From Bacillota bacterium (GTDB lineage: Bacteria; Bacillota; JAAYKD01), in the NCBI GenBank assembly GCA_963666425.2, contig OY762825.2, positions 2,816,001 to 2,880,000 on the forward strand: a DNA stretch of 64,000 bases, given 5' to 3'. The translations under genes were made by a program, and so were the position numbers. Below the pieces are notes generated by a model. That model was given only the letters and a program-made list of their open reading frames with translations, did no database searches and was not told the origin of the DNA. Below are positions 1,941-62,086 of the stretch, in pieces (within the stretch, counting starts at the first letter, position 1; the number at the start of each line of letters is the position of its first letter).

Positions 1941-1970
1941 TGTTCCAGGGGGACGGGGGTGTTGGCACAG
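1941..1970 (+). repeat. 30-bp G-rich core repeat, copy 1 (consensus)
   Basis: tgttccagggggacgggggtgttggcacag, 2 nt after the GGDEF gene stop. Confidence 0.97.
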
Positions 1971-2264
1971 AGTTTCGGTAGCCTCGTTATGCTGAAAATC
2001 GAAAACACCGTCAGTATCAAACCTACAATTTGGTTAAACATGTCTCAGCAAGAAGATTAGGAACATTTAAACGTGCGCGTCTTCGATCAGGCTCGGCGTT
2101 TTTTAGCCAACCTCTGATCTATATCAGCTGCAGCCAGAGCATAAAGGTGTGCGACGTTGCCTTCTGCATGAGCCAGGTTAAAGTGGTCACCAACCATGCA
2201 GTGGTATGTTCTTATGACGACACATGCGGAGTAAGCCGTATTGATGTCAAGGGTGCAGCGATAA
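1971..2264 (+). pseudogene. Decayed rlmD/rumA C-terminal remnant following the repeat
   Basis: Frameshifted translation VFDQARR..LIYISCSQS..CDVAF..HAE..AVLMSRVQR*. Confidence 0.75.
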
Positions 2265-2303
2265 TTGGCATTCGTAAAATAGATAATAAGGGTGCGGTAA
2301 CAG

Positions 2304-3157
2304 ATGGATAGATATTTTGAGATAAAGAAACGCTTATTAAGTATTTGTATTAGCGATGACAACGTTTGTGCAGTAATTGCCATTGGTTCGTCTGTCAGAA
2401 ATTATTCAAGGCAGATGAGTATTCCGATATGGATTTGATTCTTGCGTGTAAAAACCCAGATGAATGGCTTTTTGGCGAACAGTCTGCTAAACTCGGAAAG
2501 ATCAAAATATCGTTTGTCGAACCAACACTCGGTGGAGGGTTGGAGCGAAGAATATTATTTGACGGTTCACTTGATGTTGACCTAATTGTATTTACTCCCG
2601 AACAGCTTGAAACAGCAATAATAAACGGAGTTGCCTCCGAAGTTATGAACCGAGGATATTCCGTGCTATATGACAATATTGGTATTACTGAAATCATTGA
2701 TGACAATGTTGAGATATGTGTTCCTCATGCTGTTATGACCGAAAACGAGTTTATTAATATGGTAGGTGATTTCTGGTTTCATACCATATGGTCATCGAAG
2801 AAAATACTTCGTGGGGAGTTATGGGCAGCAAAAATGTGCATTGACTCATATTTAAAGAACTATCTTCTGAAAATTATCGAACTATACGAAACTTCTTCTA
2901 AACAAAGCGATGTATGGCACAACGGTAGATTTCTTGAAAAATGGGCAGGAGAAGAAATAATTGAAGCGCTTGGTGCGTGTTTTGCTCACTATGAAAAAGA
3001 AGATATTGTTTCAGCACTTATAAACACGGCAATGCTTTTTGGTAAAATTGCTCGCAATGCAGCAGAACTATGCTGTTACGTTTATCCAGCTGAGTCTGAA
3101 GATTATGCCTGCTCGCTTTTGGAAGAGTATTTTCATCATACTGTAAATATCGTCTAG
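2304..3157 (+). pseudogene. Aminoglycoside 6-adenylyltransferase-like nucleotidyltransferase, frameshifted near 2410
   Basis: MDRYF..IAIGSSVR in one frame continues as ADEYSDMDL in another; KKILRGELW and WHNGRFLEKW motifs. Confidence 0.75.
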
Positions 3158-3160
3158 CAA

Positions 3161-3190
3161 TGTTCCAGGGGGACGGGGGTGTTGGCACAG
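3161..3190 (+). repeat. 30-bp core repeat, copy 2 (consensus)
   Basis: Exact consensus, 3 nt after TAG 3157. Confidence 0.97.
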
Positions 3191-3429
3191 ATTTTCGGTA
3201 GCCTGGTTATGCCGAAAATCGAAAACACCGTCAGCATCAAACCCGCAATTTGGCTAAATATGTCTTAGCAAGAAGATCAGGAACATTTAAACATGCAAGC
3301 AGAGTAAAAAAGCACGCGACGATGCACCTTTGCGTGGGCTTGGTTAAAATAGTCACCGGCCAGGTAGTGGGTATGTTCCCCATGAAGATATATGTGGAGT
3401 ATGTAAAATTAATGTCGACGGTAGATAAC
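3191..3429 (+). pseudogene. Decayed rlmD/rumA C-terminal remnant
   Basis: Tail similar to 1971-2090; ends GQVVGMFPMKIYVEYVKLMSTVD. Confidence 0.75.
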
Positions 3430-3613
3430 ATAAAAAAAGGAATTTGCAGTCTTTAGCAAGAACAAGAACAAAGCAATATTTCGATACTGGTAAGATCGTA
3501 ACCTGTTCAGTAGTGTTCTAATGGAATCTTCTTGTACTACAGATTAGTAATGGAGGTGAAATTGAGCAGCGGTATATCGGTATTGATAAGCACAAAAACA
3601 AAGGGGGAGCAAA

Positions 3614-9459: not shown

Positions 9460-9792
9460 GATATTAAGAGGTTAGGATTTTAACTCAATCATTTATGTGC
9501 TCTTTCCGGGAACAGGTTGAGTTATATTACTACAACTTGGACGTTTTAACGCACCAGTGTGCCCATAAAATCACGTTCAATCTATTACATTGCACGGAAA
9601 ATCAGTATAAACATACCAAACATCGTCTGCACCCCCACTGGTCAACATTTAGATTAGCATATACAACGAATTGAAGAAAACTATTTTCATTATGCTATTC
9701 TTATCATAATTCAGCAAGAATTGCCAGCATAATGAGGTTGTGTTCAAGAAATATACAAGCTGATAGATATGTTTAAAAATAATCCGGAGATA

Positions 9793-9830
9793 AATGCAAA
9801 ATATACTGTATTTTGCATTATCAGTATAAT
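9793..9830 (+). promoter_or_regulatory. Perfect 11-bp inverted repeat (operator-like) next to TATAAT
   Basis: aatgcaaaata-tactg-tattttgcatt followed by tataat at 9825, upstream of ATG 9854. Confidence 0.5.
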
Positions 9831-9853
9831 TTACTCTTTTGTGAGGTGAAAAT

Positions 9854-13291: not shown

Positions 13292-13324
13292 TAAGAGCTA
13301 AGAGGACAGGGTGTTTGCAAGATT

Positions 13325-15055: not shown

Positions 15056-15060
15056 CCAAT

Positions 15061-15090
15061 ACGGGGTTGAGTAAATGAACTCAACCCCGT
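15061..15090 (+). terminator. Hairpin / probable terminator
   Basis: acggggttgagt-aaatga-actcaaccccgt perfect stem after hsdR. Confidence 0.65.
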
Positions 15091-15171
15091 TAACCGGAAC
15101 GAGAAAGAAACGAGATACGTTTATTTATCATTTTACGGAATTGATTATAAGTAGAAGACAGAGGAAGAAAT

Positions 15172-24172: not shown

Positions 24173-24345
24173 CTGGGTAGATACGAATAATGTTGATATC
24201 CATACTGAAGATATTTTGAATAAATCGATTTTCCGCCAAGGGGGGTAGCAGAGTAACACGACCTCTTTTTTACTGCTACAAGCCGCATGGAGACTGCCGT
24301 GTTGATGTGTGCATAAGTGATTTTTTATGCAGTAAGGAGAAACAA

Positions 24346-24825
24346 ATGGAACAAATTTTTATGAGCTTTCTAAACACGGTTCCCGAACACTTAAGACCTT
24401 TCGTGAGCGAAATCGACGCTTATCTGCTAGACAAAAACTGCAAAAGAAGCATTAAGCCCGCGGCAAAAGGATACCTGGTTTCCTATGCGTTGCCGGTTTC
24501 AAAGAAAACGCTGCTCAATTTTGTATTTAGGAAAGGCTGTGTCAAGGCAAGAATTTATGCGACGCATGTAACAGAATATGAAGAACTGGTCAGTGGATTT
24601 CCCGAAGCAACAAAGAAAGAGATAGCGGCCGCCCTTGAATGCAAAAAGCTGACCGGACTGACCTGCAGCCCGACCTGCCCTGCCGGATATCAATTTGTGA
24701 TGGACGGTGTGGAATACAAGAAATGCCGCAGTATGGCTTTTCTTCCCATACTGAATGAGGAAAATAACCCTTTCATAAGAAAAATGATCGAAGCAGAAGT
24801 TTGTTGTTCAATGACGGACAGATAA
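24346..24825 (+). CDS. Hypothetical Cys-motif protein (copy A)
   Basis: RBS AAGGAG; CKKL..CSPTC..KKCR; duplicated at 30834. Confidence 0.8.
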   Translation: MEQIFMSFLNTVPEHLRPFVSEIDAYLLDKNCKRSIKPAAKGYLVSYALPVSKKTLLNFVFRKGCVKARIYATHVTEYEELVSGFPEATKKEIAAALECKKLTGLTCSPTCPAGYQFVMDGVEYKKCRSMAFLPILNEENNPFIRKMIEAEVCCSMTDR

Positions 24826-24857
24826 ACCTTAATTTGGATTATGCCGAGGTGCAGAGA

Positions 24858-25406
24858 ATGGTTATTTACAGAGAGTTGACAGAGTGTGATATCCTTGATG
24901 CTGCCATGTTGAAAGCATCATGCTGGGATGAAGAAACTGCAGGCACATCAAGCGAAAAACCTGATATTGTTAAAGAGCATACTTCATTTGTTAAGTGGAT
25001 GAAGACAGCGGATGAAAATGCTGATGTCCGTTTGTTATATGGTGCTTTTGATGACGAAAAGATGGTTGGCACAGTTTTTGCCAGCTTTGTCGAGTCTAAA
25101 GATGCTCCCGAACACGGATTTGAGTTGAATGGACTCTGGGTGGATCAGGGGTATCGCCGTCGGGGGATAGCATTGACTTTGCTGAAAAAAGTATGCGAAG
25201 AGTTTAGAAAACTAGGAGCAAAGAAAATGATTGTCTACAATTATCACATTGCTCCGTCAAACAGTTTTTACCTTAAATTTGGGTGTAATGTCATCTCTAC
25301 GGAATATCAAACAAAAGATAGGCTGCAAACCGATATCATCGAAGGAAATATTGAAGATCTGATCACGAGATTATCCGTGTCGCTTCAGAAAGTGGTCTCG
25401 AGATAA
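24858..25406 (+). CDS. GNAT acetyltransferase (copy A)
   Basis: LWVDQGYRRRGIA, FYLKFG. Confidence 0.85.
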   Translation: MVIYRELTECDILDAAMLKASCWDEETAGTSSEKPDIVKEHTSFVKWMKTADENADVRLLYGAFDDEKMVGTVFASFVESKDAPEHGFELNGLWVDQGYRRRGIALTLLKKVCEEFRKLGAKKMIVYNYHIAPSNSFYLKFGCNVISTEYQTKDRLQTDIIEGNIEDLITRLSVSLQKVVSR

Positions 25407-25456
25407 TTGTTCCATCGAAAACAATGCGATAAGTCCAATTCGCCTGGCCATCAGTA

Positions 25457-25485
25457 TGTTCCAAGGGGACGGGGTGCTGGCACAG
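25457..25485 (+). repeat. Core repeat, copy 3 (variant)
   Basis: tgttccaaggggacggggtgctggcacag. Confidence 0.92.
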
Positions 25486-25774
25486 ACTCACAAATTATCG
25501 ATTTATTCTCCGGATAAGGTTTCGTCTTACTTGCAGTAAAACTTTGATCTGATAAGCAAAAACATAAATTTTTTGACAAACCCAAGAATGCAGATCATTG
25601 GTTTATTGCAGCATTGCACATTCTAAATATCATGGACAAATTAGATGTCATCGAAAGCTTTTCACCTCCGGGTAGTCAACTGTATTTTATCAAGAAGAAA
25701 TCCCTGAAATTATCAAGATAAATTCCCGAAAAGAATCAAAGGTAATCCCGGGAAGAATCATAGAGGTTATTTTG

Positions 25775-29936: not shown

Positions 29937-30539
29937 ATGATAAAGACGATAGCGATGTTAATGGCTGAACTGAAAGAGTATGTGAATCCAACAGCTAAGA
30001 TCCGGCGGCTCGTGGATGAAGGGAAATTGATTCCCGTTGTCAGAGGTTTGTACGAAACAGATGGGAGCATACCAGGATACTATCTTGCTCCAATTATTTA
30101 CGGACCTTCATATTTGTCTTTTGAATTTGCATTGGCATACTACTCGCTTATTCCAGAAGCGGTATACAGTTTTACATCAGCAACTTTTGAAAAGAAAAAA
30201 GCAAAGCAATATACAACACCCTATGGTACATTTACTTATCGTGATGTTCCAAGCGAAGCATATCCTGCTGGTATTGTTCTGCATTCTGAGAACGGGTATG
30301 GGTTTCAAATTGCGACTCCTGAGAAAGCCATCTGCGATGAACTCTACAAAATTTCTCCTCTAAAGAACAGTGGCGATTTGGAACGCCTTTTATTCGAAGA
30401 CCTAAGAATTGACAAGGAAGAATTCTATCATCTGAAACTATCGGATTTACTTGAAATAGCGGCTCTTTATCACACGCAGAATCACAAGCTGCTGCAGGCT
30501 TATCTCAGAAGGGGAATAAAAAATGGATCAAATTATTGA
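29937..30539 (+). CDS. Type IV toxin-antitoxin AbiEi-like antitoxin
   Basis: VRGLYE, PSYLSFEFALAYYSLIPE and IATPEKAICD motifs. Confidence 0.85.
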   Translation: MIKTIAMLMAELKEYVNPTAKIRRLVDEGKLIPVVRGLYETDGSIPGYYLAPIIYGPSYLSFEFALAYYSLIPEAVYSFTSATFEKKKAKQYTTPYGTFTYRDVPSEAYPAGIVLHSENGYGFQIATPEKAICDELYKISPLKNSGDLERLLFEDLRIDKEEFYHLKLSDLLEIAALYHTQNHKLLQAYLRRGIKNGSNY

Positions 30540-30558
30540 GCAAATGTTGACGCAATAG
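30523..30558 (+). pseudogene. 11-codon stub of probable AbiEii toxin, cut off at the core repeat
   Basis: MDQIIEQMLTQ* overlapping the antitoxin 3' end, preceded by an RBS-like GGGGA. Confidence 0.6.
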
Positions 30559-30559
30559 A

Positions 30560-31944: not shown

Positions 31945-31973
31945 TGTTCCAAGGGGACGGGGTGCTGGCACAG
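31945..31973 (+). repeat. Core repeat, copy 5 (same variant as copy 3)
   Basis: tgttccaaggggacggggtgctggcacag. Confidence 0.92.
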
Positions 31974-31998
31974 ACTTGCTGTCACCCACTCAACTCAA

Positions 31999-37834: not shown

Positions 37835-37864
37835 TGTTCCAGGGGGACGGGGGTGTTGGCACAG
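37835..37864 (+). repeat. Core repeat, copy 6 (consensus)
   Basis: Exact consensus. Confidence 0.97.
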
Positions 37865-39045: not shown

Positions 39046-39262
39046 CGGGTGTTGATACAGAGTTGAAAAATCTAGTTATGCTGAAAACTAAAAACGCTCT
39101 CACAACCGTATGCACAACTCAATCCAATTAGCTTCTTTTCAGTTGCGATCCAAATAGACAGTGCGTGTCATTGCGCTCCTGCGTGAATTGGACTATATAG
39201 TGGCCATTAGTTAGGTATTGGTCATGCTCTCTATAGAATACACATGTTGAACCCATAATGTC
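39046..39262 (+). pseudogene. Partial core repeat plus rlmD remnant
   Basis: cgggtgttgatacag, then shared tail, then FSCDPN..IALLRELDY..THVEPIM. Confidence 0.75.
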
Positions 39263-39385
39263 CTTAGGCGTCGGTTTCAACAATGCATTGCGCATTTCGG
39301 TAACATGCCTTATAATAGTAGAACACGCATTGTGTCATCACGAATCATTTCAAGAAATCTAAAATCGAAAAGGAAGTAATACAAA

Positions 39386-40140: not shown

Positions 40141-40170
40141 CGTTCCAGGGGGACGGGGGTGTTGGCACAG
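40141..40170 (+). repeat. Core repeat, copy 7
   Basis: cgttccagggggacgggggtgttggcacag. Confidence 0.96.
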
Positions 40171-40306
40171 ATTTGGGTAACCAAGTTATACTGTGATATA
40201 AAAACACCTTCAGAATCAGACCGGAAATTTGGCTTGAGTATGTCTAAGCAAGATAAAGATATGATTTGATAAATATTCTAGGGATGCTAAGAGTGGGAGT
40301 GACAAT

Positions 40307-42142: not shown

Positions 42143-42170
42143 TGTTCCAAGGGGACTGGGGAGCCGGGTA
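42143..42170 (+). repeat. Core repeat, copy 8 (degenerate 3' half)
   Basis: tgttccaaggggactggggag, 2 nt after TAG 42140. Confidence 0.8.
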
Positions 42171-42203
42171 AGTTGAATTAGAATTTGCAGAGGTGTTTTG
42201 TAA

Positions 42204-42867: not shown

Positions 42868-43785
42868 ATGAAAGCAATTGTGGAGATGCTAAATAAGAAC
42901 TATCCCTTTGAGATAGACCGCATTGAATTACTGCGTGATATGGGGAGTACGTCTTACACCGCATTTTCCGGCAGCAATAAATACTTCTTGCGCGCAATTA
43001 AGCCTGCGCTTCTTGACACAGCGGTTATCGGTACCAACATTCAAGTGTTTTTGCAAAAGCAAGGCTTTCCGGTGCCGCCGATTATCTTTACAAATGATGA
43101 CTTACATTATGTAAAAGATGAAAACGGACTGTTCATTCTATATGAGTTTATTGAGGGTAACGACTGCAATCCGGAGCAGGACGCGGAAGCCATCGGAGCG
43201 CTGGTGGGCAGGCTTCACAAAGAAATGAAAATCTATACCGGTGAGCTTGTTCAACGGGACAAGCATTTTTACATTGGAAGATATATTGAAATTCTGCGGA
43301 AAAAAGGATATCCCAGAATAGATGAATACTCAAAATATGGTGATGATCTTTGGGACGAAATCAAGGAATTGCCACGAGGATATTGCCATGGCGATCTGTA
43401 TGAGGGTAATATACGAAAAGGATCTGACGGTAAGTTATATATACATGATTTTGATACCTCCTGCGAAGGTTTTCCGATGTATGACCCAACTTTGATCTGT
43501 GATATGACCAAATATTTTGATTTTGATGAGAGCAATTTTGATCGGTCAAACAAAGTGTTTTCCAGGTTTCTATCAGAATACAAAAAATACATTCCCCTTA
43601 GTCAAGCGGAAATAGATGCCTTTCATGCCTTGATTGCCATACAACATTTCTCTACCCAAGCTACGGTGATGGAGATATTTGGCATTGATTGTATTGTCGC
43701 TACAGATATGGACAATCAACTTGAGTGGCTGTACCGGTGGCGCCAACAATGTGCCAGGGGAACGGGGGTATTGGCACAGAGTTGA
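42868..43785 (+). CDS. APH/homoserine-kinase-like phosphotransferase
   Basis: CHGDLYEGN, HDFD; the last 11 aa come from the repeat and the 3 nt after it. Confidence 0.85.
   Translation: MKAIVEMLNKNYPFEIDRIELLRDMGSTSYTAFSGSNKYFLRAIKPALLDTAVIGTNIQVFLQKQGFPVPPIIFTNDDLHYVKDENGLFILYEFIEGNDCNPEQDAEAIGALVGRLHKEMKIYTGELVQRDKHFYIGRYIEILRKKGYPRIDEYSKYGDDLWDEIKELPRGYCHGDLYEGNIRKGSDGKLYIHDFDTSCEGFPMYDPTLICDMTKYFDFDESNFDRSNKVFSRFLSEYKKYIPLSQAEIDAFHALIAIQHFSTQATVMEIFGIDCIVATDMDNQLEWLYRWRQQCARGTGVLAQS
43750..43779 (+). repeat. Core repeat, copy 9
   Basis: tgtgccaggggaacgggggtattggcacag. Confidence 0.92.
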
Positions 43786-43975
43786 AAAGTCTCGGTTTAT
43801 GCTGAGATTCGCAACATCATCAGTATCTGGATTGCATCCCGATCAAACATGTTTCTTTTCAGCTGCAACCCGAATCCGCTGTCAATCGGCACCGTACTTC
43901 TGCGCGGATTGGGTTATCAAGTGTCACTGGCCAACCGATTGATCTGGTTCCATGATGACGCAGGTTGTAACAGTG
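43780..43975 (+). pseudogene. rlmD/rumA C-terminal remnant
   Basis: FSCNPNPLSIGTVLLRGLGYQVSL..QPIDLVP..MTQVVTV. Confidence 0.8.
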
Positions 43976-46217: not shown

Positions 46218-47024
46218 ATGAAGAAACTCGTTTTTATCGAAGGGGTATCAGGTGTAGGCAAATCCACCACGGTAATGAAGCTTTGTGATGCTTTGAATGG
46301 CCACGGCTTTCGGTCTGTCTGTCATTTGGAAGGCGATACGGATAATCCTGTGGATTTCTTTCACTGTGCTTATTTGACAAAAATAGAGTTTTCTCAGTTG
46401 TTGCAGAATTATCCGAGCGATACATGCGTGCTGAAGAATAACAGCATTTCAGAAGCCGATTATGTGCTTGTCCGTTATGGTAACCGCAACACAACCTATT
46501 TCACCCCACCGCTTTTCGATGTATTAAAAATGTATGAGGGGTTTTATAAACCCATAAAGCTGATTGCCATTGAACAATATACAAAAGTTTTTACTGACAG
46601 TTGGCGACGATTTTTACGGCAAGATCAAGGTAACACAGACTTTGTGATTGTTGACGGCAGCTTTCTCTATCATCGTGCCAATGATCTGATACAGAATTAC
46701 AATGCTACTGATGAAATGATTGCTGCACACCTGAAAACATTGCTTTCGGCGATGTTGCCATACACTCCGCTTCTCTTCTACCTTTCTTCAAATGATGTCG
46801 GTGCGCAGCTGATTCGAGCGCGAGAAAGCCGCGGACAAGCTACGGCAACCAAAGCTCAAATTGCTTTTGAGACAGTGAGAAAAAACCGGCAAACTCAAGT
46901 ATTGAAATTGCTGCCTATACATGCACATATCATCGACATCTCAGACGGTTGGGAAAACGCGATTAATGATATGCTGGGTATTATCTTGTGCCAAGGGGAC
47001 GGGGGTGTTGGCACAACTGGATAA
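46218..47024 (+). CDS. P-loop nucleotide-kinase-like protein
   Basis: FIEGVSGVGKST; C-terminus CQGDGGVGTTG comes from the repeat. Confidence 0.78.
   Translation: MKKLVFIEGVSGVGKSTTVMKLCDALNGHGFRSVCHLEGDTDNPVDFFHCAYLTKIEFSQLLQNYPSDTCVLKNNSISEADYVLVRYGNRNTTYFTPPLFDVLKMYEGFYKPIKLIAIEQYTKVFTDSWRRFLRQDQGNTDFVIVDGSFLYHRANDLIQNYNATDEMIAAHLKTLLSAMLPYTPLLFYLSSNDVGAQLIRARESRGQATATKAQIAFETVRKNRQTQVLKLLPIHAHIIDISDGWENAINDMLGIILCQGDGGVGTTG
46987..47016 (+). repeat. Core repeat, copy 10
   Basis: tgtgccaaggggacgggggtgttggcacaa (perfect 8-bp stem). Confidence 0.94.
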
Positions 47025-48386: not shown

Positions 48387-48833
48387 ATGATAGAGATTTT
48401 TGCAATAACGCAGGAGCATAGATTATGGAAAGATACGATTGAATTTGCGGATCATTGTTCTTGGAAGGCCGGAGCCTTTTTGGCAGCGAAGATGAGAGAA
48501 AATGCGTTTTGTGCCTGGGAAAGAGTCTTTATCTCTTGCGTCGATGGGAAAATAGTTGGTTTTTCTACATTGGCTGCAAAGGATGAGCTTCCGGAAGGCT
48601 TTGAATTTACCCCCTTTATTGGATTTATATTTGTTGATGAGAAGTATCGTGGCCACAGATTATCAAAATTAATGATTGATACCGCTGCTGAATATGCTGA
48701 TGAATTAGGATATGAAAAAGTATATCTTATGAGCGGTGAAATTGGCTTGTACGAAAAATATGGCTTTGTAAAATTGGGAGATTATGAGACGATCTATGGT
48801 TCGGTTGACCAACTCTTTGTAAAATCAATCTGA
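48387..48833 (+). CDS. GNAT acetyltransferase
   Basis: FVDEKYRGHRLS, LYEKYGF; its stop TGA is the first 3 nt of the repeat. Confidence 0.87.
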   Translation: MIEIFAITQEHRLWKDTIEFADHCSWKAGAFLAAKMRENAFCAWERVFISCVDGKIVGFSTLAAKDELPEGFEFTPFIGFIFVDEKYRGHRLSKLMIDTAAEYADELGYEKVYLMSGEIGLYEKYGFVKLGDYETIYGSVDQLFVKSI

Positions 48834-48860
48834 GCCAAGGGGACGGGGGTATTGGCACAG
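48831..48860 (+). repeat. Core repeat, copy 11
   Basis: tgagccaaggggacgggggtattggcacag. Confidence 0.92.
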
Positions 48861-48949: not shown

Positions 48950-49669
48950 ATGAGCTATCAAATACTTCTTTTCGATTTAGATGATACATTATTGGATTTT
49001 GAGGCGAATGAAACGGATTCGTTAAATCAATTGTTTCTGCAAAACGGTTCTGTCTTTTCGGAAGAGCTGTTCCAACTCTATCATTCTGTTAACAAACAAT
49101 TATGGGCTGCGTATGAAAACGGAACTATTGCCCTAGAAGACGTACTAAACTCCAGGTTTTCTAAAACCATGTCACTATTAGGGAAAGATGTAAATGGCAT
49201 AGAATGGGAAAGTCAATATCGGGAGCTGCTGGGAAATGGCTGTCAGCTGATCGATGGAGCCTTTGAGATATGCCAGAGCTTATCCACAAGCCATAGATTG
49301 TTTATCGTCACGAACGGTGTAACCAAAACACAAATAAAACGATTGAAGCACTCGGGTTTATATGGGTTTTTTGAGGATATTTTTACTTCACAGAACATTG
49401 GATTCCAAAAGCCTTCAAAAGAATATTTTGAATATGTTAAGAGTCATATTCAGAATTTTTGTCTCGAAAAGGCACTCTTGATTGGAGATTCGCTGAATAG
49501 CGATATCAAAGGCGGGCTTCTGGCGGGAATGGACACCTGTTGGCTGAACAGAAAGGCACAAAAATGCTCCGCGGATATTCACAGTACTTACACGATCACA
49601 AGCTTAGCGGAACTATATCCCATCTGTGCGTGTACCAGGGGGACGGGGTGTTGGCACAAAGTTGGATAA
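48950..49669 (+). CDS. YjjG-family HAD nucleotidase
   Basis: FDLDDTLLDF, VTNG, QKP, IGDSLNSDIKGG; C-terminus comes from the repeat. Confidence 0.88.
   Translation: MSYQILLFDLDDTLLDFEANETDSLNQLFLQNGSVFSEELFQLYHSVNKQLWAAYENGTIALEDVLNSRFSKTMSLLGKDVNGIEWESQYRELLGNGCQLIDGAFEICQSLSTSHRLFIVTNGVTKTQIKRLKHSGLYGFFEDIFTSQNIGFQKPSKEYFEYVKSHIQNFCLEKALLIGDSLNSDIKGGLLAGMDTCWLNRKAQKCSADIHSTYTITSLAELYPICACTRGTGCWHKVG
49631..49659 (+). repeat. Core repeat, copy 12
   Basis: tgtaccagggggacggggtgttggcacaa. Confidence 0.92.
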
Positions 49670-49872
49670 TCTAGCTTTGTTTTGGGAACCAAAAAAACAC
49701 CTTCAGTATCCAACCTGCAATTTGACCGAATATATCTCAGCAAAAGAATCAGCAACATTTGACCGCGCTCGTTTTTCGTCACTGCTGCACTAATTTTCCA
49801 ATCCAACTGCACGGTTTCAGCCGATGTAATCAAAACAGGAAGTTGTAGGGAGGATTATTTAGATTTGATGAG

Positions 49873-51600: not shown

Positions 51601-51630
51601 TGTTCCAGGGGGACGGGGGTGTTGGCACAG
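51601..51630 (+). repeat. Core repeat, copy 14 (consensus)
   Basis: Exact consensus, 0 nt after TAA 51600. Confidence 0.97.
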
Positions 51631-51879: not shown

Positions 51880-52029
51880 TGGCTTTCTTGCAGGCGAGAC
51901 AAGGTTATGTATATGCTAATCTAAATGTTGACCAGTTTAGCACCGAATGCTAAACGAAAAGTTGACCACCTTGAGCCCCTTTCCTGTTATGATGTATTTG
52001 CGAGAAACATCAAGCAGGAGGAAAGGAAA

Positions 52030-53499: not shown

Positions 53500-54260
53500 G
53501 TCTTGATATAACCGAGGCTCAAATTGAGCTCTCTTGTAAACTTCTTCGCTTACCAGGCTTGAAACAACAGTTTCGCGCTCTGGTTCGCGAAGCAAACGAA
53601 AGGAACCTGAATTGTAGTCAATTCTTGAAACTGTGCTTAGAACAAGAAATTCACGATCGCCAGGTAAAGAAACAGCAAATTCTGCTTCGTCAGGCTAAAT
53701 TCCCGGCAAAGAAGACCTTGGCGGATTTCGATTTTACGAAAATCCCGCAACTGCCAAAGAACAAAATATTAAAGCTTGCCGATTCCGAATATGTTAAGCG
53801 TAAAGAAAATATTATTTGTATTGGCAGAGCTGGAACGGGAAAAAGTCATATTAGCATTGCCTTGGGAATGGAAGCTTTACAAAAGGGTTTTCGAGTTCGG
53901 TTCATTTCAGTGATGCAGCTTTTGCAGGAAATTCAATTGGCTGAAGCGGAATTCCGCTTACCCCGCTACTTAAAAGCATGGAACCGAGTCGATCTTGTTA
54001 TTCTTGATGAACTTGGTTATCTCCCACTTGGGGAACAGGGTAAACTACTATTTCATTTTATCTCTCAACGTTACGAAACAGGAAGCTTGATAATAACCTC
54101 TAACTTAGAGTTTTCCCGCTGGGTTGAAGTCTTGCATGACCCAGCATTAACTTCTGCCTTGCTAGACAGACTGACTCACCATTCTAATATTATCCTTTTC
54201 GATGGAGAATCGTATCGCTTTCGCGAAAGCCTGGCTCGCCAGGCGGTGGATTTGAATTAG
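53496..54260 (+). CDS. istB: IS21 helper ATPase
   Basis: GRAGTGKSH, ILDELGY, LLDRLTHH. Confidence 0.95.
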   Translation: MSLDITEAQIELSCKLLRLPGLKQQFRALVREANERNLNCSQFLKLCLEQEIHDRQVKKQQILLRQAKFPAKKTLADFDFTKIPQLPKNKILKLADSEYVKRKENIICIGRAGTGKSHISIALGMEALQKGFRVRFISVMQLLQEIQLAEAEFRLPRYLKAWNRVDLVILDELGYLPLGEQGKLLFHFISQRYETGSLIITSNLEFSRWVEVLHDPALTSALLDRLTHHSNIILFDGESYRFRESLARQAVDLN

Positions 54261-54997: not shown

Positions 54998-55027
54998 TGT
55001 TCCAAGGGGACGGGGGTGTTGGCACAG
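54998..55027 (+). repeat. Core repeat, copy 15
   Basis: One mismatch; tail internally deleted. Confidence 0.95.
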
Positions 55028-55115
55028 CAGCAGACCCGCAATTCAATCAAATATGTCTCAGCAAGAAGCTTAGCAACATTAGGTAGCAATGAGATTAGAA
55101 TTAGGAGTTGATGAA

Positions 55116-56816
55116 ATGAATAAAAGATTTGTTGGCATGTGCATGCTGTTTTTTGCATTTAGTATAGCATTTATGAACCCGGTTTTTGCTGCAAATGGAT
55201 CAATCGACGTCATAACAACACTCCCAACTTTTAATGTTACTCTGAATGGTGTAGAAATTAACAACCATGCTAACCTGTATCCTTTACTGGTATATAAGGA
55301 CATTACTTATTTCCCATTGACATATAGTGACAGTAGATTTTTGGGCTTGGAATCCAACTGGAAGGGAATCCAAGAAGGTCTATCGATTGATTCGACAGAT
55401 ATTACTGCTGCGTATGATCTTCATCAAACAGAGGATAACTATGACAGTGGCTATCTGGCAACAATGCCATCCTTCCCAGTTATGATAAACGGGAAGTTAA
55501 TTGATAACAGTAGGGAAGAATATCCGATATTGTTATTTCGGAATATAACATATTTTCCAATCACCTGGCGGTTCGCGGTTGATGAATTTGATTGGGATTA
55601 TAGTTTTGATTTGAATAACGGTCTGTCGATCGAATCGAATAACATTCATTTGCTCCAAAGCTCAGTTCCCAATGACAGAGCGGAAGACTCAGAAGTAATG
55701 GCAATAGCAGGTGGGTATCTCTATTATGTCGGCGCAAATGGATGGATCATGCAATCCAAGATTCTTCCTGTCAGTACTATTGAACTTTTCCATGGTATGA
55801 ACGAAGCAACAATAGGCAAAGCAGTCTATCAACTCCCTTTTAACAGTCTAGGTGATGGTAAATCATATGTTTTACCCCGGTTATATTCAGAAAATGGAGA
55901 GGCTTATCTATCGTTTTATAATGGCGGAGCGACCATGGGAACGGATTATCTCTTTCACCTGAACGGTGATGGAGCCACACTGATCAATCATTCCAGAAAC
56001 GTTAATAAATCTTTTGGAGATAAAGAATTCCTTTGGTGGGTAGGATCTGCACCGGCTGCAGGAAATTTGTACATGAAAACCTCAAGTACGGTTAATACTG
56101 CGGACCCAACTTATCCCGGCTGGGAAAAAATAGGATCCCCAGATTACCTGTATGGCTGGAACTGGAGTATTGACGATTCGGTTGGCATTCCGGGCGTGAG
56201 TGAGGGTGGGTCCGGATCGAGCGACTGCTATCTGATTGGCGATAATTTATATATTCTTGCATTTGATACGCGGGCAGCTGCTGAATATATCAAAAACGGC
56301 GGTAGCAAACCGACAACCGGACTGTATCAGGTGAATATTAAGACGAATGAAACGAAAAGAATTAGCGAACAGGAAGTGACAGGATTTACTGTTGATGGTG
56401 ATTCTATTTACTATCATAATCGATATGTCGAGCTCTTCCGGTATCAAATATCGGAAAAGAAGGAATATCCATTACCGACAAAACTTGAGAGAGGTAACAA
56501 TTTCATTGAGCGCTTTGAAGTTCTGGGAGGTCAGATCTATTTTGAAAGCGGAGTGGATCACGGACTCTATCATCCTGCTTATGAGACGATCGGATGGAGT
56601 GTGCGCGAATTGAAACTGACCGGTTCCAATCAGGACTATGTAGCTTGTACGCTCTCGGGGAGTCCAGAGTTTCCCGACAGGATTGTTTTGTTTGATCGCA
56701 CAGGAAAAAAGGTCTTCAGATCATCGGATGAATCGCGCGCACTAACAGTTGAAGGTGACTATATTTACTATTTCAATCAAAGCACCAACACAATCTGCAT
56801 AGGAGACTTAAAGTGA
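55116..56816 (+). CDS. Secreted/surface protein (two YP.L.Y..ITYFP repeats plus beta-propeller-like C-terminus)
   Basis: Signal peptide ending VFA-A; its stop TGA begins a degenerate repeat. Confidence 0.75.
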   Translation: MNKRFVGMCMLFFAFSIAFMNPVFAANGSIDVITTLPTFNVTLNGVEINNHANLYPLLVYKDITYFPLTYSDSRFLGLESNWKGIQEGLSIDSTDITAAYDLHQTEDNYDSGYLATMPSFPVMINGKLIDNSREEYPILLFRNITYFPITWRFAVDEFDWDYSFDLNNGLSIESNNIHLLQSSVPNDRAEDSEVMAIAGGYLYYVGANGWIMQSKILPVSTIELFHGMNEATIGKAVYQLPFNSLGDGKSYVLPRLYSENGEAYLSFYNGGATMGTDYLFHLNGDGATLINHSRNVNKSFGDKEFLWWVGSAPAAGNLYMKTSSTVNTADPTYPGWEKIGSPDYLYGWNWSIDDSVGIPGVSEGGSGSSDCYLIGDNLYILAFDTRAAAEYIKNGGSKPTTGLYQVNIKTNETKRISEQEVTGFTVDGDSIYYHNRYVELFRYQISEKKEYPLPTKLERGNNFIERFEVLGGQIYFESGVDHGLYHPAYETIGWSVRELKLTGSNQDYVACTLSGSPEFPDRIVLFDRTGKKVFRSSDESRALTVEGDYIYYFNQSTNTICIGDLK

Positions 56817-56840
56817 GCCAGGGGGGCGGGGATGGCAAAG
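56814..56840 (+). repeat. Core repeat, copy 16 (degenerate)
   Basis: tgagccaggggggcggggatggcaaag. Confidence 0.72.
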
Positions 56841-57004
56841 CAATTTCTGGTTAGCTTTAGTGAAGTAGGTTTTCACTTGATGCAGCAGACGTGAAGACGA
56901 TGTATTCTAAACATGCGGGTGGAATGAGTGAGCTGAACTCTGCGTGGCTATGCCATAGTGTTGATTTTAGATAGAGATTGATTAGAATTTAATGAGGTAA
57001 GAAA

Positions 57005-57695: not shown

Positions 57696-59516
57696 GGGGC
57701 TGTAGCAAAACAGCCTAAAAAAACAGAGCCAAGTGGCTGCGAAAAGCAGACACAAGGCTCTGTTTTTTTGGTATAATTGAATCGTGAAAAAACCACTACA
57801 CCGTGTCCATTATGGCACGAAAAAAAGAAATGTGCAACTAAAACTTGACGAATTTTTTGCTGAGAAAATAATTCCTGCAGATGACAGTGTGCGGCTCTTA
57901 GACGAAATAATGGAGGAGATGGATGAGACCCCGCTTTGGAGAGCATATCAACGCACAGGCCGTCGCCCGGCAACAAATCCCGTTACCATGCTGAAGCTAA
58001 TGGTATATGCCAGTATGCAAGGCATTTTTTCCAGCCGCGCCATCGCCATGGCATGTAAGCGAGATATCAATTTCATCTGGCTGCTCAATGGAAAAAAAGC
58101 ACCTAACCACAGCGAAATCGCGCGTTTTCGAAGTAAACGGCTGACAAAATGCGGTGAGGAGCTTTTCTACCAATTGGTGAAAAAGCTGGCAAACTTGAGT
58201 GAAATCAAGTTTGAGCATCTGTTTGTAGACGGGACAAAACTCGAAGCGAATGCGAACAAGTATAGCTTTGTCTGGAAAAAAAGCACGACGAAATATGAAA
58301 GCAGGCTACTTGACAAACTGTCGAAGTGGCTGCCTGAGCTGTCTGCAAAATACGGTATTCTGGCAGAAACGTCGGAAGATTTGCTGCAGATCCTCGAGCG
58401 CCGGATAACCGCACCGTTTGTCTACGGCAAGGGCAAGCGAAAAAGCGAGTTGCAAAGGGATATCGAGCAGCTTCGGGAACTGCTCGGCCGGAAAGAAAAG
58501 TATGCCGGATATCAAACGACCTTCCAAGGGCGGAATAGCTTCTCTAAAATTGATCCGGATGCGACTTTCATGCATATGAAAGACGATCATATGCGTAACG
58601 CGCAATTGAAACCGGGTTATAACATCCAACTTGGAGTGGAAGGTGAATATATTACAGGTGTCCAGGTTTCCAGTGAGCGCAGCGATCAGCTTACACTCAT
58701 ACCCTTGCTGGAAAATATGGAATCACATCTGGGGACAAGTTACGAAGATGTCACAGCGGATGCGGGTTATGAGAGCGAGGAAAATTACACCTTTTTTGAA
58801 AATAAAACCACACAGTGTTACATTAAGCCTCAAAATTATGAGCGGTCTAAAACGAAGAAATACAAGAGCAACATGGCGCTGAGGGAAAACATGGCCTATG
58901 ACAAGACACTGGATGAATACACCTGTCAGGCTGAAAAGAAGCTCAGAGCAGTTTATACAGGCAAACGTAAGAGCAAGTCTGGTTTTGAAAGTGAGATCAC
59001 CTACTACGCATGTGAGGATTGCGGAACGTGTCCCTATAAAAAGAAATGCACCCGATCGAAGGGAAACAGGAAACTGCAGGTCTCCAAGAAATTCATTGAG
59101 CAGCGTCAACAGTCACTGGAGCGGATCACCAGTGCCAAGGGGATCTTGCTGCGGATGAATCGTTCCATTCAGTCAGAAGGAGCCTTCGGCGTGATCAAGC
59201 AGGATTACGGCTTCCGTCAGTTCCTGCTCCGCGGCAATAAAAAGGTTTTGGCAGAGATTCTTTTGGTGGCAATGGGCTACAACATCAACAAATTACACAA
59301 CAAGATTCAACAAAATCGCACCGGCAGACAATTGTTTAAAAAACTTACGGCTTAACAATAGTAAAAATCAGAATATTTCCTGTATTTGGGTGAGATTTTA
59401 TCTGACCTTTATATTTCTGTCTGCTGTTTTTCGTATTAGCTTGTTTTTCGTTTGTGAAAAATGATACTGGAGCATCAAAAAGAGACTGTAGCAATTTTTC
59501 ATTTTGCTACAGCCCC
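57696..59516 (+). mobile_element. IS1182-family insertion sequence
   Basis: Terminal IR ggggctgtagcaaaa / ttttgctacagcccc around the transposase; target duplication not resolved. Confidence 0.9.
57784..59355 (+). CDS. IS1182-family transposase
   Basis: FVDGTKLEANANKY, DPDATFM, KPGYN, ADAGYESEEN, EGAFG. Confidence 0.93.
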   Translation: MKKPLHRVHYGTKKRNVQLKLDEFFAEKIIPADDSVRLLDEIMEEMDETPLWRAYQRTGRRPATNPVTMLKLMVYASMQGIFSSRAIAMACKRDINFIWLLNGKKAPNHSEIARFRSKRLTKCGEELFYQLVKKLANLSEIKFEHLFVDGTKLEANANKYSFVWKKSTTKYESRLLDKLSKWLPELSAKYGILAETSEDLLQILERRITAPFVYGKGKRKSELQRDIEQLRELLGRKEKYAGYQTTFQGRNSFSKIDPDATFMHMKDDHMRNAQLKPGYNIQLGVEGEYITGVQVSSERSDQLTLIPLLENMESHLGTSYEDVTADAGYESEENYTFFENKTTQCYIKPQNYERSKTKKYKSNMALRENMAYDKTLDEYTCQAEKKLRAVYTGKRKSKSGFESEITYYACEDCGTCPYKKKCTRSKGNRKLQVSKKFIEQRQQSLERITSAKGILLRMNRSIQSEGAFGVIKQDYGFRQFLLRGNKKVLAEILLVAMGYNINKLHNKIQQNRTGRQLFKKLTA

Positions 59517-59548
59517 TTAAAAGACGTTTATGGTCATCCTAATGATAA

Positions 59549-59992
59549 CTATTCGCTGGTTTCGCATTCGCTTTGCATTTTCTTTAACGCATTATTGAAT
59601 TCACTGGCAATTCTATTTTCGTTGATCCACATCACAAGATTTACGGTTAAATCTATTATGAAGATAGCAACACCAAGCGCTATCGTCATAGAGATATCGT
59701 TAAGCAGTCCAATGAAATAGAGAACTGACAGAATGATAGCTTCAAGCAAGATGAAGTGAAGAAGGTTTCTTATCGCTGCCTGCTTCAAAGACATCTCTCG
59801 TTTTGAGTATTTCACTAGTGTGGGAAGTGAAGCAGTCGCACCGAAGATTAATGGTGAAAAAAACGCTTCATAACCAAACCGAGTGTTGGGTTCGTAGAGC
59901 AAGCCAATCAGAGCCATAGCCAGGCAAATGCATGTAACCGATATAAAAAAGCTTATCATAACCTTTTTTATAAAAAAAGTTTTAAAGTCCAT
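59549..59992 (-). CDS. Four-TM membrane protein (DUF3021-like)
   Basis: Hydrophobic segments; coupled to the LytTR gene. Confidence 0.7.
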   Translation of the reverse strand: MDFKTFFIKKVMISFFISVTCICLAMALIGLLYEPNTRFGYEAFFSPLIFGATASLPTLVKYSKREMSLKQAAIRNLLHFILLEAIILSVLYFIGLLNDISMTIALGVAIFIIDLTVNLVMWINENRIASEFNNALKKMQSECETSE

Positions 59993-59993
59993 T

Positions 59994-60437
59994 TTATTTA
60001 CCTCCCATGACTGCGCGTTTTATTTCCGGCACATACTGCCTTGATATGATGATCTCTTCACCGTTTTTCATGTGAGCCGTAAATCGCCCGTTTAAAGCCG
60101 GGCTGATGCCCTCAAGCTTCATCAGGTTGAGAACAAAGGATTTAGAGCAGCGGACAAAATGTTTATCCGCATAAGCATTCTCAAGCTCATACAGACGGAT
60201 TTTGAGTTCATACGACCTGCTCTTTGTATAGGCAAACACCCGCTCGTCCACCGCCTCAAAATAGAAAACCTCGGAGAGATTAAACTGATAGATACGCTCG
60301 TCAACGTTTCCCGTTAATATTGTCCCCTTGGTGAGAGCATACGAGCGTATACTCTCGATATCGGGTGTTACCTCAACGCATTCTATAATCAGACACTCAT
60401 CGGCTTTTTCGCTGATTTGCTTGATACGTACTTTCAT
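59994..60437 (-). CDS. LytTR-family DNA-binding regulator
   Basis: YFEAVD, RLYELE, FVRCSKS, ISRQY. Confidence 0.9.
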   Translation of the reverse strand: MKVRIKQISEKADECLIIECVEVTPDIESIRSYALTKGTILTGNVDERIYQFNLSEVFYFEAVDERVFAYTKSRSYELKIRLYELENAYADKHFVRCSKSFVLNLMKLEGISPALNGRFTAHMKNGEEIIISRQYVPEIKRAVMGGK

Positions 60438-60439
60438 GA

Positions 60440-61741
60440 TTAATATTCCTTTGCGATTTTTACTTCTCCCGCGTTTTTTAAATAGCAGTTGAAAAATTCC
60501 AGCACAACTTTGTTCATTGTTTCAATACAATACCTTGCGTCAATCGTACCCACACCAAGCATTTTGGACAGTGTTGGAGAGAACAAGGGCAAATCGGTAA
60601 AGTTCAGATGCCCCGCATCTTGAAACACTGTCTCATAGGCACAGAGAGCATTCTGAGTCGCATGAAAGTTCTCATAGGCATCTCCAACAGATTCCTTTGC
60701 ATTTGTGTAATGATCCTCTGCATAGATGTTAAGCAGTGGCACCTGATAGGGCGTATCATTCAAAACAGCAGAGTTGTTTTCATATGCAATCTCTTCGCCC
60801 AGCATCGTTCCGTCCAGGACGATTACCGCATCTATATCATCCCGTGTTCTGCCAATTTGCGCAGACGAAGCACCACCAAGAGAATGTCCCATCAATCCGA
60901 TTTCTTCTGTGTTTATGATAGAAAATAACTCATCGGTATTACCTTTTCCGCAATCAGCTAGAATTGTATTAATAACGAAATTTTCATCATCTGTACGAAT
61001 CTTCATCCATTCACTGGTGGTAATATAAATTTCTTCTTCGTGACTTGTATCACGATCATTACTGATTTCAATTGCTGTATTGAGAAAATCAGTGTTTACT
61101 ATTGAAAGTTTACCGCTTGTGTCCATTGTATAGAACGCCTGATAGGTATGACCGATGCTTGCGACAACATATCCGTTTGAGGCAAGTTCCTCAAATGTAG
61201 AGTAATTACTGCCGCTGAAGCCAAACGCACCATGGGAAAAAACAACAAGCGGATAGGTCTGATCAGCGTTTTTGGGATACCAGAATTCAACCGTTAAAGC
61301 TCTGTTTTCACCAGATTTCGAGAATTCATCCATCCGGTTGGTATCAATCCAGGTATATTTTGCCATCGCTACTTCATATTCACCTGTAGTTTTCGGCTGC
61401 TGATATTGCGGGCATAGAATAGCAAGGAACAGAGCAAAGCTAAAGATGAAACAGTTCCTTACGAAACGAAAAATGTTTTTCCTCAGCCCATATTCCATTG
61501 CTCTTTTTCTGACGAGTATCACCGTGCCAACAAGCGCCTGTATCACCAGTACGAGTAATAACATCGTGTAGCGGAAGCTCCAATCATAAATGCCTGTGAT
61601 CAGCAACAAACAGAACAGCACCAGTAGGCCGATACTGATAATTGCTTTCTCTTCTCTGTGATTGTTTCTTGTGACGATTGACCATGCTAAAAAAAATGTC
61701 TCCAACGCGAGTAATAACACCAGTGTAAGAATTCCCATCAT
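60440..61741 (-). CDS. Membrane-anchored alpha/beta hydrolase (PAF-acetylhydrolase-like)
   Basis: FSHGAFG, LASNGYVV, GHSLGG, HLNFTD. Confidence 0.85.
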   Translation of the reverse strand: MMGILTLVLLLALETFFLAWSIVTRNNHREEKAIISIGLLVLFCLLLITGIYDWSFRYTMLLLVLVIQALVGTVILVRKRAMEYGLRKNIFRFVRNCFIFSFALFLAILCPQYQQPKTTGEYEVAMAKYTWIDTNRMDEFSKSGENRALTVEFWYPKNADQTYPLVVFSHGAFGFSGSNYSTFEELASNGYVVASIGHTYQAFYTMDTSGKLSIVNTDFLNTAIEISNDRDTSHEEEIYITTSEWMKIRTDDENFVINTILADCGKGNTDELFSIINTEEIGLMGHSLGGASSAQIGRTRDDIDAVIVLDGTMLGEEIAYENNSAVLNDTPYQVPLLNIYAEDHYTNAKESVGDAYENFHATQNALCAYETVFQDAGHLNFTDLPLFSPTLSKMLGVGTIDARYCIETMNKVVLEFFNCYLKNAGEVKIAKEY

Positions 61742-62057
61742 TTCACCCTCCAATTGATTTCTAACGCAACCATAACTGAAATCCACTTTGATATCAATCA
61801 ATTTTGGATGAAATGCGTTCTGGAAGGATGAGTTACGTTGAAGTGCTGGAGCTAAGTCAAAGAGGCCGCAAATGCTAAGATTGCCTGACCGAGCATTGTT
61901 TGGTATCATAGTTTAAAAGAGAAAAGGAAAGACACCCCTCAACAAGGAACTCAATCTGTAACCAGCAGCAGAGCCCAAGCGGTGTCCTACCAAAGCATGC
62001 TGATTGTATCAGACTTTACCTTTGAGCGCAAGAAGGGGCACAGAAAAATCTCACTAA

Positions 62058-62086
62058 TGTTCCAGGGGGACGGGGGTGTTGGCACA
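62058..62086 (+). repeat. Core repeat, copy 17
   Basis: 29-nt match to consensus, close after a TAA. Confidence 0.96.

Follow-up and report, generated by a model that had tools for sequence, protein, structure and literature searches.

Repetitive extragenic palindromic (REP) elements and the REP-associated tyrosine transposases (RAYTs) that go with them have been studied almost only in Proteobacteria, and ever since their first description it has been debated what such systems do for the cells that carry them. In vitro, TnpA-REP binds single-stranded REPs, cleaves on either side of them and transfers strands (PMC3333891). Catalogued REPs lie mostly downstream of open reading frames (ORFs) and form dimers, their super-families are defined by a terminal GTAG or CGTC tag, and the words Firmicutes and Clostridi are absent from the main text of that catalogue (PMC3733652). 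Some "Group 1" RAYTs occur in Clostridia, with high-copy flanking repeats reported in the same source for Groups 2 and 3 only (PMC5581495). In streptococci the rumA gene is an integration hot spot with tandem accretion (PMC7168690). Here we describe a 64,000-nucleotide stretch of a Negativicutes genome (C1:2816001-2880000, hereafter the window) in which a 30-bp repeat, always on the + strand, punctuates a series of small genes, and which a first-pass annotation had read as an integron-like array of mobile cassettes.

We find that the repeat is a REP element, belonging to a Negativicutes genus and linked to a RAYT-type transposase, that the array is anchored at the rRNA methyltransferase gene rlmD, displaced 3' ends of which recur within it, and that the edges of the REPs are enriched in breakpoints. 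The explanation we favour, with moderate confidence, is that a genus-specific REP/RAYT family is combined here with an accessory island grown behind rlmD, whose REP-bearing joints are the sites at which modules are gained and lost.

The window belongs to a 3.2-Mb assembly, a metagenome-assembled genome of 98.5% completeness and 6.85% contamination that we call G000; its main contig, C1, is 2.9 Mb long and covers the entire island. The assembly also includes the variant contigs C4, C8, C16 and C17. A further set of contigs (C3, C5, C7, C10, C12, C13 and C15), with GC contents of 0.22-0.63 against 0.47 in C1, probably derive from other organisms. One other species of the same genus was sampled, the sister species G001. 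Judged by GC skew, replication of C1 starts at around 1.66 Mb and terminates at around 0.2 Mb, so that the + strand of the window is the leading strand, approximately 220-290 kb from the terminus.

The repeat had been read as a recombination site of no recognised system; it is neither private to the array nor of an undescribed kind. A 25-nt core pattern with at most one mismatch finds 102 copies in G000, 44 forward and 58 reverse, while the reversed control pattern finds none, and a profile search raises the number to 112 at E < 1e-3. Contig C1 has 90 copies, 32 of them in tail-to-tail inverted pairs, which form palindromes of approximately 60-135 bp, 10 in tandem and 48 single. They are associated with gene ends: 38 of the 90 begin between -45 and +25 nt from the stop codon of an ORF on the same strand, compared with 8.9% of random positions. 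Each REP consists of a 7-bp stem, TGTGCCA/TGGCACA, around a G-rich loop of 15-16 nt, and the island subtype, TGTTCCA, has one stem mismatch.

The family appears to be confined to the genus, as the repeat is present in 2 of the 41 genomes searched and both belong to it. The sister species has 27 copies, and for 15 of the 27 in the stretches fetched a flank of at least 100 nt maps no more than 50 bp from a REP of G000; the flanks of these shared-position REPs are 77-99% identical between the two species, and their cores are at or near the consensus. The exact REP pattern was found at 0 loci in 185,579 species genomes, a set from which records of this or very near genomes may be left out. A metagenome scan returned 11 short contigs, nine of which match G000 at 97-99.7%, eight of the nine from end to end; only one contig falls in the window, so the scan has no bearing on cassette order.

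A single-copy gene with a Y1_Tnp domain lies at C1:435359-436096 on the - strand, flanked by inward-facing REPs (435297 and 435330 on +, 436291 on -). Contig C8 holds a further copy as a variant of the same locus, and the sister species has an orthologous gene with an identical REP layout on its contig C30. The protein is 245 amino acids long and scores 45.5 bits against Pfam Y1_Tnp. Its sole match in the Protein Data Bank is E. coli TnpA-REP (4ER8, E = 3.2e-5), in an alignment that pairs both the HUH motif (HIH with HMH) and the tyrosine motif YxxxNP (YIHQNP with YIYINP). The closest named homologue, at 86%, is annotated "transposase [Negativicutes bacterium]", and remoter ones are called RayT by JGI. 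The genome-wide copies, the inverted doublets, the flanked RAYT gene and the same layout in the sister species together identify a REP/RAYT family. A search for a Y1/RAYT recombinase at the ends of the array had been proposed; the enzyme does exist, approximately 520 kb from the array across the contig junction rather than at its end.

Several smaller features of the REPs were seen in passing. Some copies bear a tandem duplicate of their own first 13-15 nt, ending in ...GGGGACG, which is present in one strain variant and absent from the other in two comparisons (C1:438549 with C8:7308, and C1:439809 with C8:8569) and is also found at C1:1318 and 798219. The loop GGGGGACGGGGG, for example at window positions 1948-1959, is a candidate two-quartet G-tetraplex, and REPs prone to tetraplex formation are on record (PMC4690160). 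G000 also has ten near-identical IS110-family transposase genes (390-aa frames) at C1:93527, 95547, 561261, 706487, 708295, 1538140, 1540411, 1590897 and 1592595 and at C17:12042, eight of them paired approximately 2 kb apart; none is in the island or directly beside a REP. In other organisms IS110-family elements target REPs.

The array starts from an intact gene. The search for an intact rlmD that had been suggested finds it at C1:2813062-2814519, 1.5 kb to the left of the window, encoding a 485-aa RumA/RlmD-family rRNA methyltransferase. It is the last gene syntenic with the sister species: synteny at 90% identity runs to its last codons (C1:2814489-2814498) and returns at about C1:2898852-2900526, which gives an island of approximately 84 kb. 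The island starts at the rlmD stop codon and is low in GC; the 2.8-2.9 Mb bin of C1 has a GC content of 0.42 against 0.47 for the contig, with 51 long ORFs on the + strand and 8 on the -, and 22 REPs on + and 0 on -. All 22 REPs that the profile detects in the island on C1 are singlets in a single orientation. DNA matches of window bases 1-60000 to the sister species are limited to the REPs and a few short ones.

The C-terminal 30-50 residues of RlmD recur inside the island, as found by a translated search with the resident protein. The best pseudo-copy, at 30670-30795, is 71% identical over 42 residues to resident residues 440-481 (E = 8.5e-12); another at 43834-43923 is 50% identical over 30 residues, a third at 3346-3426 is a weak match at 52%, and two more are on contig C4. 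Alignment reveals a common unit made of a 30-nt REP, a shared spacer of approximately 100 nt and a part resembling rlmD from around codon 433 through its stop codon. Full units are headed by the REPs at 1941, 3161, 30560, 39046 (a half REP) and 43750, and weakly by that at 50339, with nucleotide identities of the rlmD-like part to the resident gene of 61, 51, 64, 56, 51 and 37% respectively. Units 40141, 49631 and 54998 are truncated, and approximately half of the island REPs have neither spacer nor rlmD copy. Significant matches to the spacer profile (E < 1e-3) are confined to this island, contig C4, a single further site of C1 and two sites of C17.

Among 61 genomes, more than two RlmD C-terminal matches were found in G000 only. 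The closest pseudo-copy shares 70% identity with RlmD from G000 and from the sister species but no more than 53% with that of the remaining genomes, which traces the fragments to the rlmD lineage of the genus itself. Co-oriented, decaying 3' ends that start from an intact gene are the mark of repeated insertion at the end of that gene. Two related candidates were set aside. We aligned eight spacers locally to the whole resident rlmD to see the spacer as a further piece of the gene, and none rose above shuffled sequences: the best two scores were equalled by 17 and 22 of 300 shuffles and neither was at a collinear place, and given this result the visible resemblance of ACACCGTCAG and CCACCCCGTCAG to the codons of the DPPR motif is unproven. 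Contigs C47 and C52 of the sister species, considered as units of the same kind, have no REP or spacer match in either, and the window-like sequence with which C47 opens is a short repeat that C1 carries at other places too.

In the window itself the first-pass list of repeats, 17 copies and a half copy all on the + strand, proved correct, with the copies at 42143 and 56814 being degenerate. Allowing at most three mismatches there are 11 matches to the 30-mer, all on +, against 0 in each of 100 shuffles of the window. Five are exact (1941, 3161, 37835, 50339 and 51601), the outermost pair 49.7 kb apart. Across the window the search profile, which was built on 15 of its copies, recovers 16 sites, 15 with E <= 1.3e-8 and the sixteenth, 42143, with E = 0.14; the site at 56814 is missed by it and is degenerate by eye. 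This leaves 15 clear copies, two degenerate ones and the half copy at 39046. Spacing had been given as mostly 1-6 kb between mainly co-oriented genes, and this holds, over a range of 0.7-22 kb and with the intervening genes mainly on the + strand. Most copies begin a few bases past the stop codon of a + strand ORF. The REP core is indeed kept while the sequence after it decays, with a mean pairwise identity of 0.93 in the 30-mer against 0.65 in the following 75 nt (36 unit pairs). The REPs of the window and the segments tied to them are as follows.

1941..1970, + strand: exact REP, 3 nt past the stop of a GGDEF gene; heads a unit of REP, spacer and rlmD 3' pseudo-copy reaching to ~2290
3161..3190, + strand: exact REP, 4 nt past the stop of an ANT(6)-like gene; heads a unit reaching to ~3430
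24286..25488, + strand: module of a 172-aa ORF and a GNAT gene, ending in the REP 25457-25486; duplicate at 30774-31976
29937..30559, + strand: 200-aa ORF with no Pfam match, then the first 12 codons of a second gene, severed exactly at REP 30560 and continuing in C4
30560..30798, + strand: REP (1 mismatch) followed by a spacer and, best preserved of all, an rlmD 3' pseudo-copy, from translated match and alignment
31945..31974, + strand: REP ending the duplicated module; this REP and 185 nt downstream recur at 37834-38050
37835..37864, + strand: exact REP between convergent genes
39046..39300, + strand: half REP, 5' part missing, with spacer and rlmD 3' pseudo-copy
40141..40253, + strand: REP (1 mismatch) and truncated spacer, without rlmD-like part
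42143..42172, + strand: degenerate REP (profile E = 0.14)
43750..43925, + strand: REP (3 mismatches) whose 7-bp stem is the perfectly paired variant TGTGCCA/TGGCACA, then a spacer and an rlmD 3' pseudo-copy
46987..47016, + strand: REP (3 mismatches), overlapping the end of a 281-aa ORF
48831..48860, + strand: REP at the stop of a GNAT gene
49631..49757, + strand: REP and spacer, with a short repeat in place of the rlmD-like part; the repeat is also at C1:2032048 and at the start of G001:C47
50339..50600, + strand: exact REP, spacer and the most decayed rlmD-like stretch, a weak case; the right-most such unit
51601..51630, + strand: exact REP; a truncated kinase copy starts 10 nt on and stops beside the IS21-type ORF that begins at 51925
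54998..55080, + strand: REP (1 mismatch) followed by no more of a type-A spacer than its distal end
56814..56843, + strand: degenerate REP-like sequence, missed by the profile
62058..62087, + strand: REP (1 mismatch), without spacer

The short repeat that replaces the rlmD-like part at 49631..49757, with its relatives at C1:2032048 and at the start of G001:C47, may be the remnant of an insertion sequence (IS) end. The truncated kinase copy at 51640-51879 matches 47812-48051. A putative "remnant REP" at 24235-24255 was recognised by eye.

The third line of evidence concerns where homology starts and stops. Contig C4 (32 kb) is a variant of window positions -1278 to 35786, 95-99% identical, in which three segments are replaced. 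At one of them the window has the order A-REP-Z-B and C4 the order A-a'-REP-B: homology ends 3 nt ahead of the window REP at 30560 and restarts 1-2 nt past the REP of C4. In C4, A-a' is one continuous ORF (region C4:2420-1200), which the window version severs after 12 codons. By eye, the gene pair concerned (window 29937-30559, C4:2420-1200) looks AbiEi/AbiEii-like. Both C4-type junctions are present in Logan contigs of the public run X15 (records 21 and 22), which belongs to a different study from the likely source runs.

Within the window the 1.2-kb module of two ORFs and a REP is duplicated (24286-25488 and 30774-31976) at 97.9% identity, and the right edge of homology is the 3' edge of the REP. 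A second duplicate, of a REP and 185 nt (31945 and 37834-38050), starts at the REP 5' edge. We took as junctions the ends of all non-trivial blocks, both between C4 and C1 and within the window, excluding blocks made of REP and spacer only and the contig ends of C4. Eight of the resulting 26 lie no more than 10 bp from the edge of a REP core, compared with a mean of 0.5 and a maximum of 4 in 10,000 random placements. Four more are approximately 103-106 or 185 nt from a REP, the distance at which we would have the spacer or unit end. The duplicated module's left edge (24296/30784), a C4 junction and the point at which G000 and the sister species diverge are all near RlmD codons 476-480. Comparison of cassettes between strains, which had been recommended, thus does reveal differing content.

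In the explanation that we favour, the RAYT, a single-copy HUH (Y1) enzyme acting on single-stranded DNA, would spread the REPs and keep them uniform in trans, as its homology to E. coli TnpA-REP suggests. Within the island, approximately 84 kb long, low in GC and variable between strains, REPs mark the places where genes and operons end, on their 3' side. This island may have grown by repeated insertion of modules at the rlmD 3' end, each insertion leaving behind a displaced, decaying rlmD end, at least five of which survive in the window together with a sixth, weak case; each surviving end is preceded by the same junction of REP and spacer. Junction units and REPs would then act as portable homology and as hot spots for breaking and joining, so that modules could be duplicated, deleted and swapped between strains at REP edges. 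The uniform REP orientation would follow from that of the modules, all of which run in the same direction as rlmD and the leading strand. We infer that exchange proceeds mostly by homologous or illegitimate recombination at the repeats rather than by a dedicated site-specific reaction. Any order of the insertions is likewise a matter of deduction, and dating them by the decay of the rlmD copies was dropped, the gradient being non-monotonic.

A number of observations weigh against this explanation. The island copies are atypical of their family, as 32 of the 68 C1 copies outside the island are in inverted pairs and none of the 22 inside. A lone 30-mer folds weakly (-2.2 kcal/mol, z = -0.5), and the REP has no terminal GTAG or CGTC tag, CGTC being found only in mid-loop on the complementary strand. 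The RAYT scores 78.1 bits against the NCBIfam model for REP-associated tyrosine transposases (NF047646, REP_Tyr_transpos), for which the cut-off is 80. The contigs of the sister species end at both flanks of the locus, and the comparison covers a single sister species and a single variant contig. The rlmD copies do not decay in a monotonic gradient with distance from rlmD. Searches with PF00589 and PF00239 in this 98.5%-complete genome did not find an enzyme for insertion at rlmD. Finally, at least eight units share the exact base at which the REP meets the spacer, yet the REPs are 0.93 and the spacers 0.65 identical; a common joint with such unequal conservation is not explained by passive decoration. 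It is this joint, together with the missing insertion enzyme, that keeps two alternatives alive, one based on the integrase of a helper element and one on the RAYT.

The first of these, which we consider unlikely but the best of the alternatives, is integrase-driven tandem accretion. Small elements lacking an integrase, comparable to cis-mobilisable elements or satellites, would enter the rlmD 3' end through the trans-acting tyrosine or serine integrase of a helper absent from this genome; the unit of REP, spacer and rlmD 3' copy would then be a junction derived from attP, in whose ancestral arm the REP had settled a single time as a mere passenger. Co-oriented direct repeats of the target 3' end, starting at the intact target gene, are what such accretion leaves, and a breakpoint recurs near RlmD codon 476 (24296/30784, the C4 junction and the divergence of G000 from the sister species). 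Integration and tandem accretion at rumA, a hot spot for both, are on record in Bacillota (PMC7168690). In nine relatives searched, the rlmD 3' end is within approximately 650 bp of a contig end, as variable DNA would predict, which hints that variable or repeated DNA often follows rlmD in Bacillota.

The enzyme that accretion requires is hard to place. Two matches to the tyrosine recombinase family PF00589 exist in the whole assembly, one fragment and one full gene (C1:2137373-2138290) 677 kb from the array, and the serine recombinase family PF00239 (Resolvase) has 0 matches in the whole assembly; as the latter is 98.5% complete, a helper may yet exist in other strains. None of the 57 window ORFs scanned is a tyrosine, serine or HUH recombinase, and the array has no relaxase, conjugation or integrase gene. 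The first-pass statement that the window lacks a candidate recombinase is therefore right for these three classes, and an IS21-type element and an ORF with DDE transposase domains are present there. A passenger REP should moreover decay like its spacer, whereas the REPs are much the better conserved, the putative core is bypassed by many junctions in favour of the edges of REPs, and the REPs without spacer or rlmD copy, about half of those in the island, fall outside such a scheme.

The second alternative, to which we give less credence still, takes the REP as the recombination site and the RAYT as the recombinase of a cassette platform anchored at rlmD, that is, an HUH-based, single-strand analogue of an integron. 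Segments bounded by co-oriented REPs would leave as single-stranded circles carrying one REP and re-enter beside a REP or REP-like target. The RAYT is the only break-and-join enzyme of the genome tied to the repeat, TnpA-REP cuts both sides of a REP and joins strands in vitro (PMC3333891), and homology stops at REP 5' or 3' edges in eight of the 26 junctions, one of which severs a gene intact in C4. The near-identity of REPs among decaying flanks, their strictly uniform orientation and their abutting of stop codons, as attC sites do, also fit. If this were true, a domesticated HUH transposase would serve as a cassette recombinase, with modules captured as single-stranded DNA.

The structure of the array fits such cassettes less well. 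The number of ORFs between neighbouring REPs ranges from 1 to more than 10, and a few of these ORFs are on the - strand; both C1/C4 swap junctions have a REP on one side only, and the duplicated module lacks a REP at its left edge. The public-run contigs showed neither circles nor empty-site junctions. These are k-mer contigs that break at each REP, and REP-to-REP joints in them were not counted as deletions or circles because their sides, 20-30 nt long, are the repeat itself. No RAYT is known to move genes, although no literature search was aimed at this point.

A third possibility is that the REPs are passive, with no part in rearrangement, their orientation following genes and replication and the mosaic junctions arising from an assembly of mixed strains. 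The contamination of 6.85%, the four variant contigs and the breaking of public-run contigs at every REP would all be compatible with it. In each replichore, single REPs are mostly on the strand that bears most long ORFs, so uniform orientation requires no special mechanism and cannot discriminate between mechanisms. We nevertheless regard passive REPs as quite improbable. A 2.9-Mb contig spans the whole island, the C4-type junctions recur in a run of a different study, the displaced rlmD ends are independent of assembly, and a repeat of only 30 bp accounts neither for a 1.2-kb duplicate at 97.9% identity nor for a gene that breaks off precisely at the edge of a REP.

A classical integron, or its integrase-less counterpart with clustered attC sites (CALIN), shares with the array the co-oriented, low-GC, cassette-like cargo and can be dismissed almost entirely, since the best score in the genome against the integron-integrase model TIGR02249 is 86.7 bits against a cut-off of 265, with 0 passing, the attC box pairs RYYYAAC...GTTRRRY (R''...R') number 0 on either strand of the window against 7.3 in shuffles, REP and extension folded as single-stranded DNA give z values of +0.6 to -2.3 with only one of seven below -2, the consensus fold of the units has a compensatory change in 0 of 12 pairs, the unit ends read GTT...AAC, the opposite of attC, and the multi-gene intervals differ from one-ORF integron cassettes.

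What remains of the first-pass reading of a cassette-delimiting site analogous to attC is that content varies and that breakpoints fall at REP edges; no IntI and no attC were found. The same annotation had named ordinary REP-like scatter combined with identical gene content between strains as the outcome that would speak against it. The scatter is there, genome-wide, in both orientations, with inverted doublets and at positions shared with the sister species, and the content differs between strains.

The genes of the window are accessory in character. Among the 57 ORFs scanned are approximately 10 GNAT acetyltransferases, two HAD hydrolases, one NUDIX protein and several small kinases, as well as ANT(6)- and APH-like enzymes and glycosyltransferases. 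A run of defence-type genes occupies 6700-19063, with an SF1 helicase, a protein with nSTAND3 and Mrr nuclease domains, an AAA_13 ATPase and a type I restriction R subunit of which only the C-terminal part is present; contig C4 has other DNA in place of part of this run. The IS21-type element lies at 51925-54260 and the ORF with DDE transposase domains at 57784-59355.

Two further repeats of the window were observed. The unit of REP and spacer that we call type A (1940-2076, 3160-3296, 49631-49757 and 55025-55080) ends with GGAACAT, the inverse of its first bases ATGTTCC, which gives the 137-bp unit short terminal inverted repeats resembling those of miniature transposable elements. A 64-bp repeat, with a hairpin and promoter-like boxes TTGATT...TATAAT, is found at 29875-29938 and 40075-40138 at 94% identity, one copy preceding an ORF and the other directly adjoining a REP.

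A second array punctuated by REPs, co-oriented on the - strand, lies at G000:C1:468000-484100, with counterparts on contig C17 and on contig C17 of the sister species (L037, L038 and L010). Here each REP is followed by a conserved module of approximately 130 nt that differs from the spacer of the window and has a promoter-like TTGTCG/TTGTCA box and a long hairpin, AGCACTGTAT...ATACAGTGCT, upstream of a ribosome-binding site. This array sits downstream of a 3383-aa ORF whose C-terminal repeats look by eye like S-layer-homology repeats. Neither the window nor this second array has any Rfam match.

The locus physically ties a Negativicutes REP family to the joints of a strain-variable accessory array, which makes it testable whether a RAYT and its REPs help to organise the flexible genome. 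It also indicates that an array with the look of an integron can arise without IntI or attC, a caution for the detection of cassette arrays in Bacillota.

Of the described systems, REP and REPIN elements with their RAYTs, such as the REPtrons of E. coli and the REPINs of Pseudomonas, are the closest. As there, the element is a short imperfect palindrome in approximately 100 copies, mostly extragenic and just downstream of ORFs, arranged as singlets, inverted doublets and tandems, with a single-copy Y1 HUH gene between inverted copies, and the family is genus-specific with many copies at positions common to both species. It differs from catalogued REPs in its host, a member of the Negativicutes (Bacillota), in lacking a terminal GTAG or CGTC and in its long G-rich loop and short stem. 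Copies are also clustered in a few terminus-proximal, low-GC regions instead of being evenly spread, and those of the island are all co-oriented singlets, fused to a spacer and a displaced gene end. IS200/IS605 elements and the palindrome-associated transposable elements (PATEs) derived from them by loss of the transposase share the type of enzyme, a Y1 HUH protein recognising single-stranded hairpins, and a strand bias linked to replication (PMC3333891); unlike IS200/IS605, no pair of left and right ends is identifiable here and the enzyme gene is outside the mobile units.

The tandem accretion of ICEs (integrative and conjugative elements), IMEs (integrative and mobilizable elements), CIMEs (cis-mobilizable elements) and prophages within conserved genes or at their 3' ends, as at rumA in Streptococcus suis, is similar in having an intact RumA-family gene at the start of the array, co-oriented duplicates of its 3' end between accessory blocks and strain-variable content, and is unlike it in that the array here has no integrase, relaxase or conjugation gene, its modules are small (1-22 kb) and a REP is at the junctions. 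Sedentary chromosomal integrons also consist of low-GC, co-oriented accessory blocks, each closed by a conserved repeat at a stop codon, with similar cargo (acetyltransferases, NUDIX proteins, kinases and resistance-like enzymes) and variable content; they differ in having IntI, attI and attC, whereas the array described here has none of these, its intervals are multi-gene and its repeat occurs genome-wide in both orientations.

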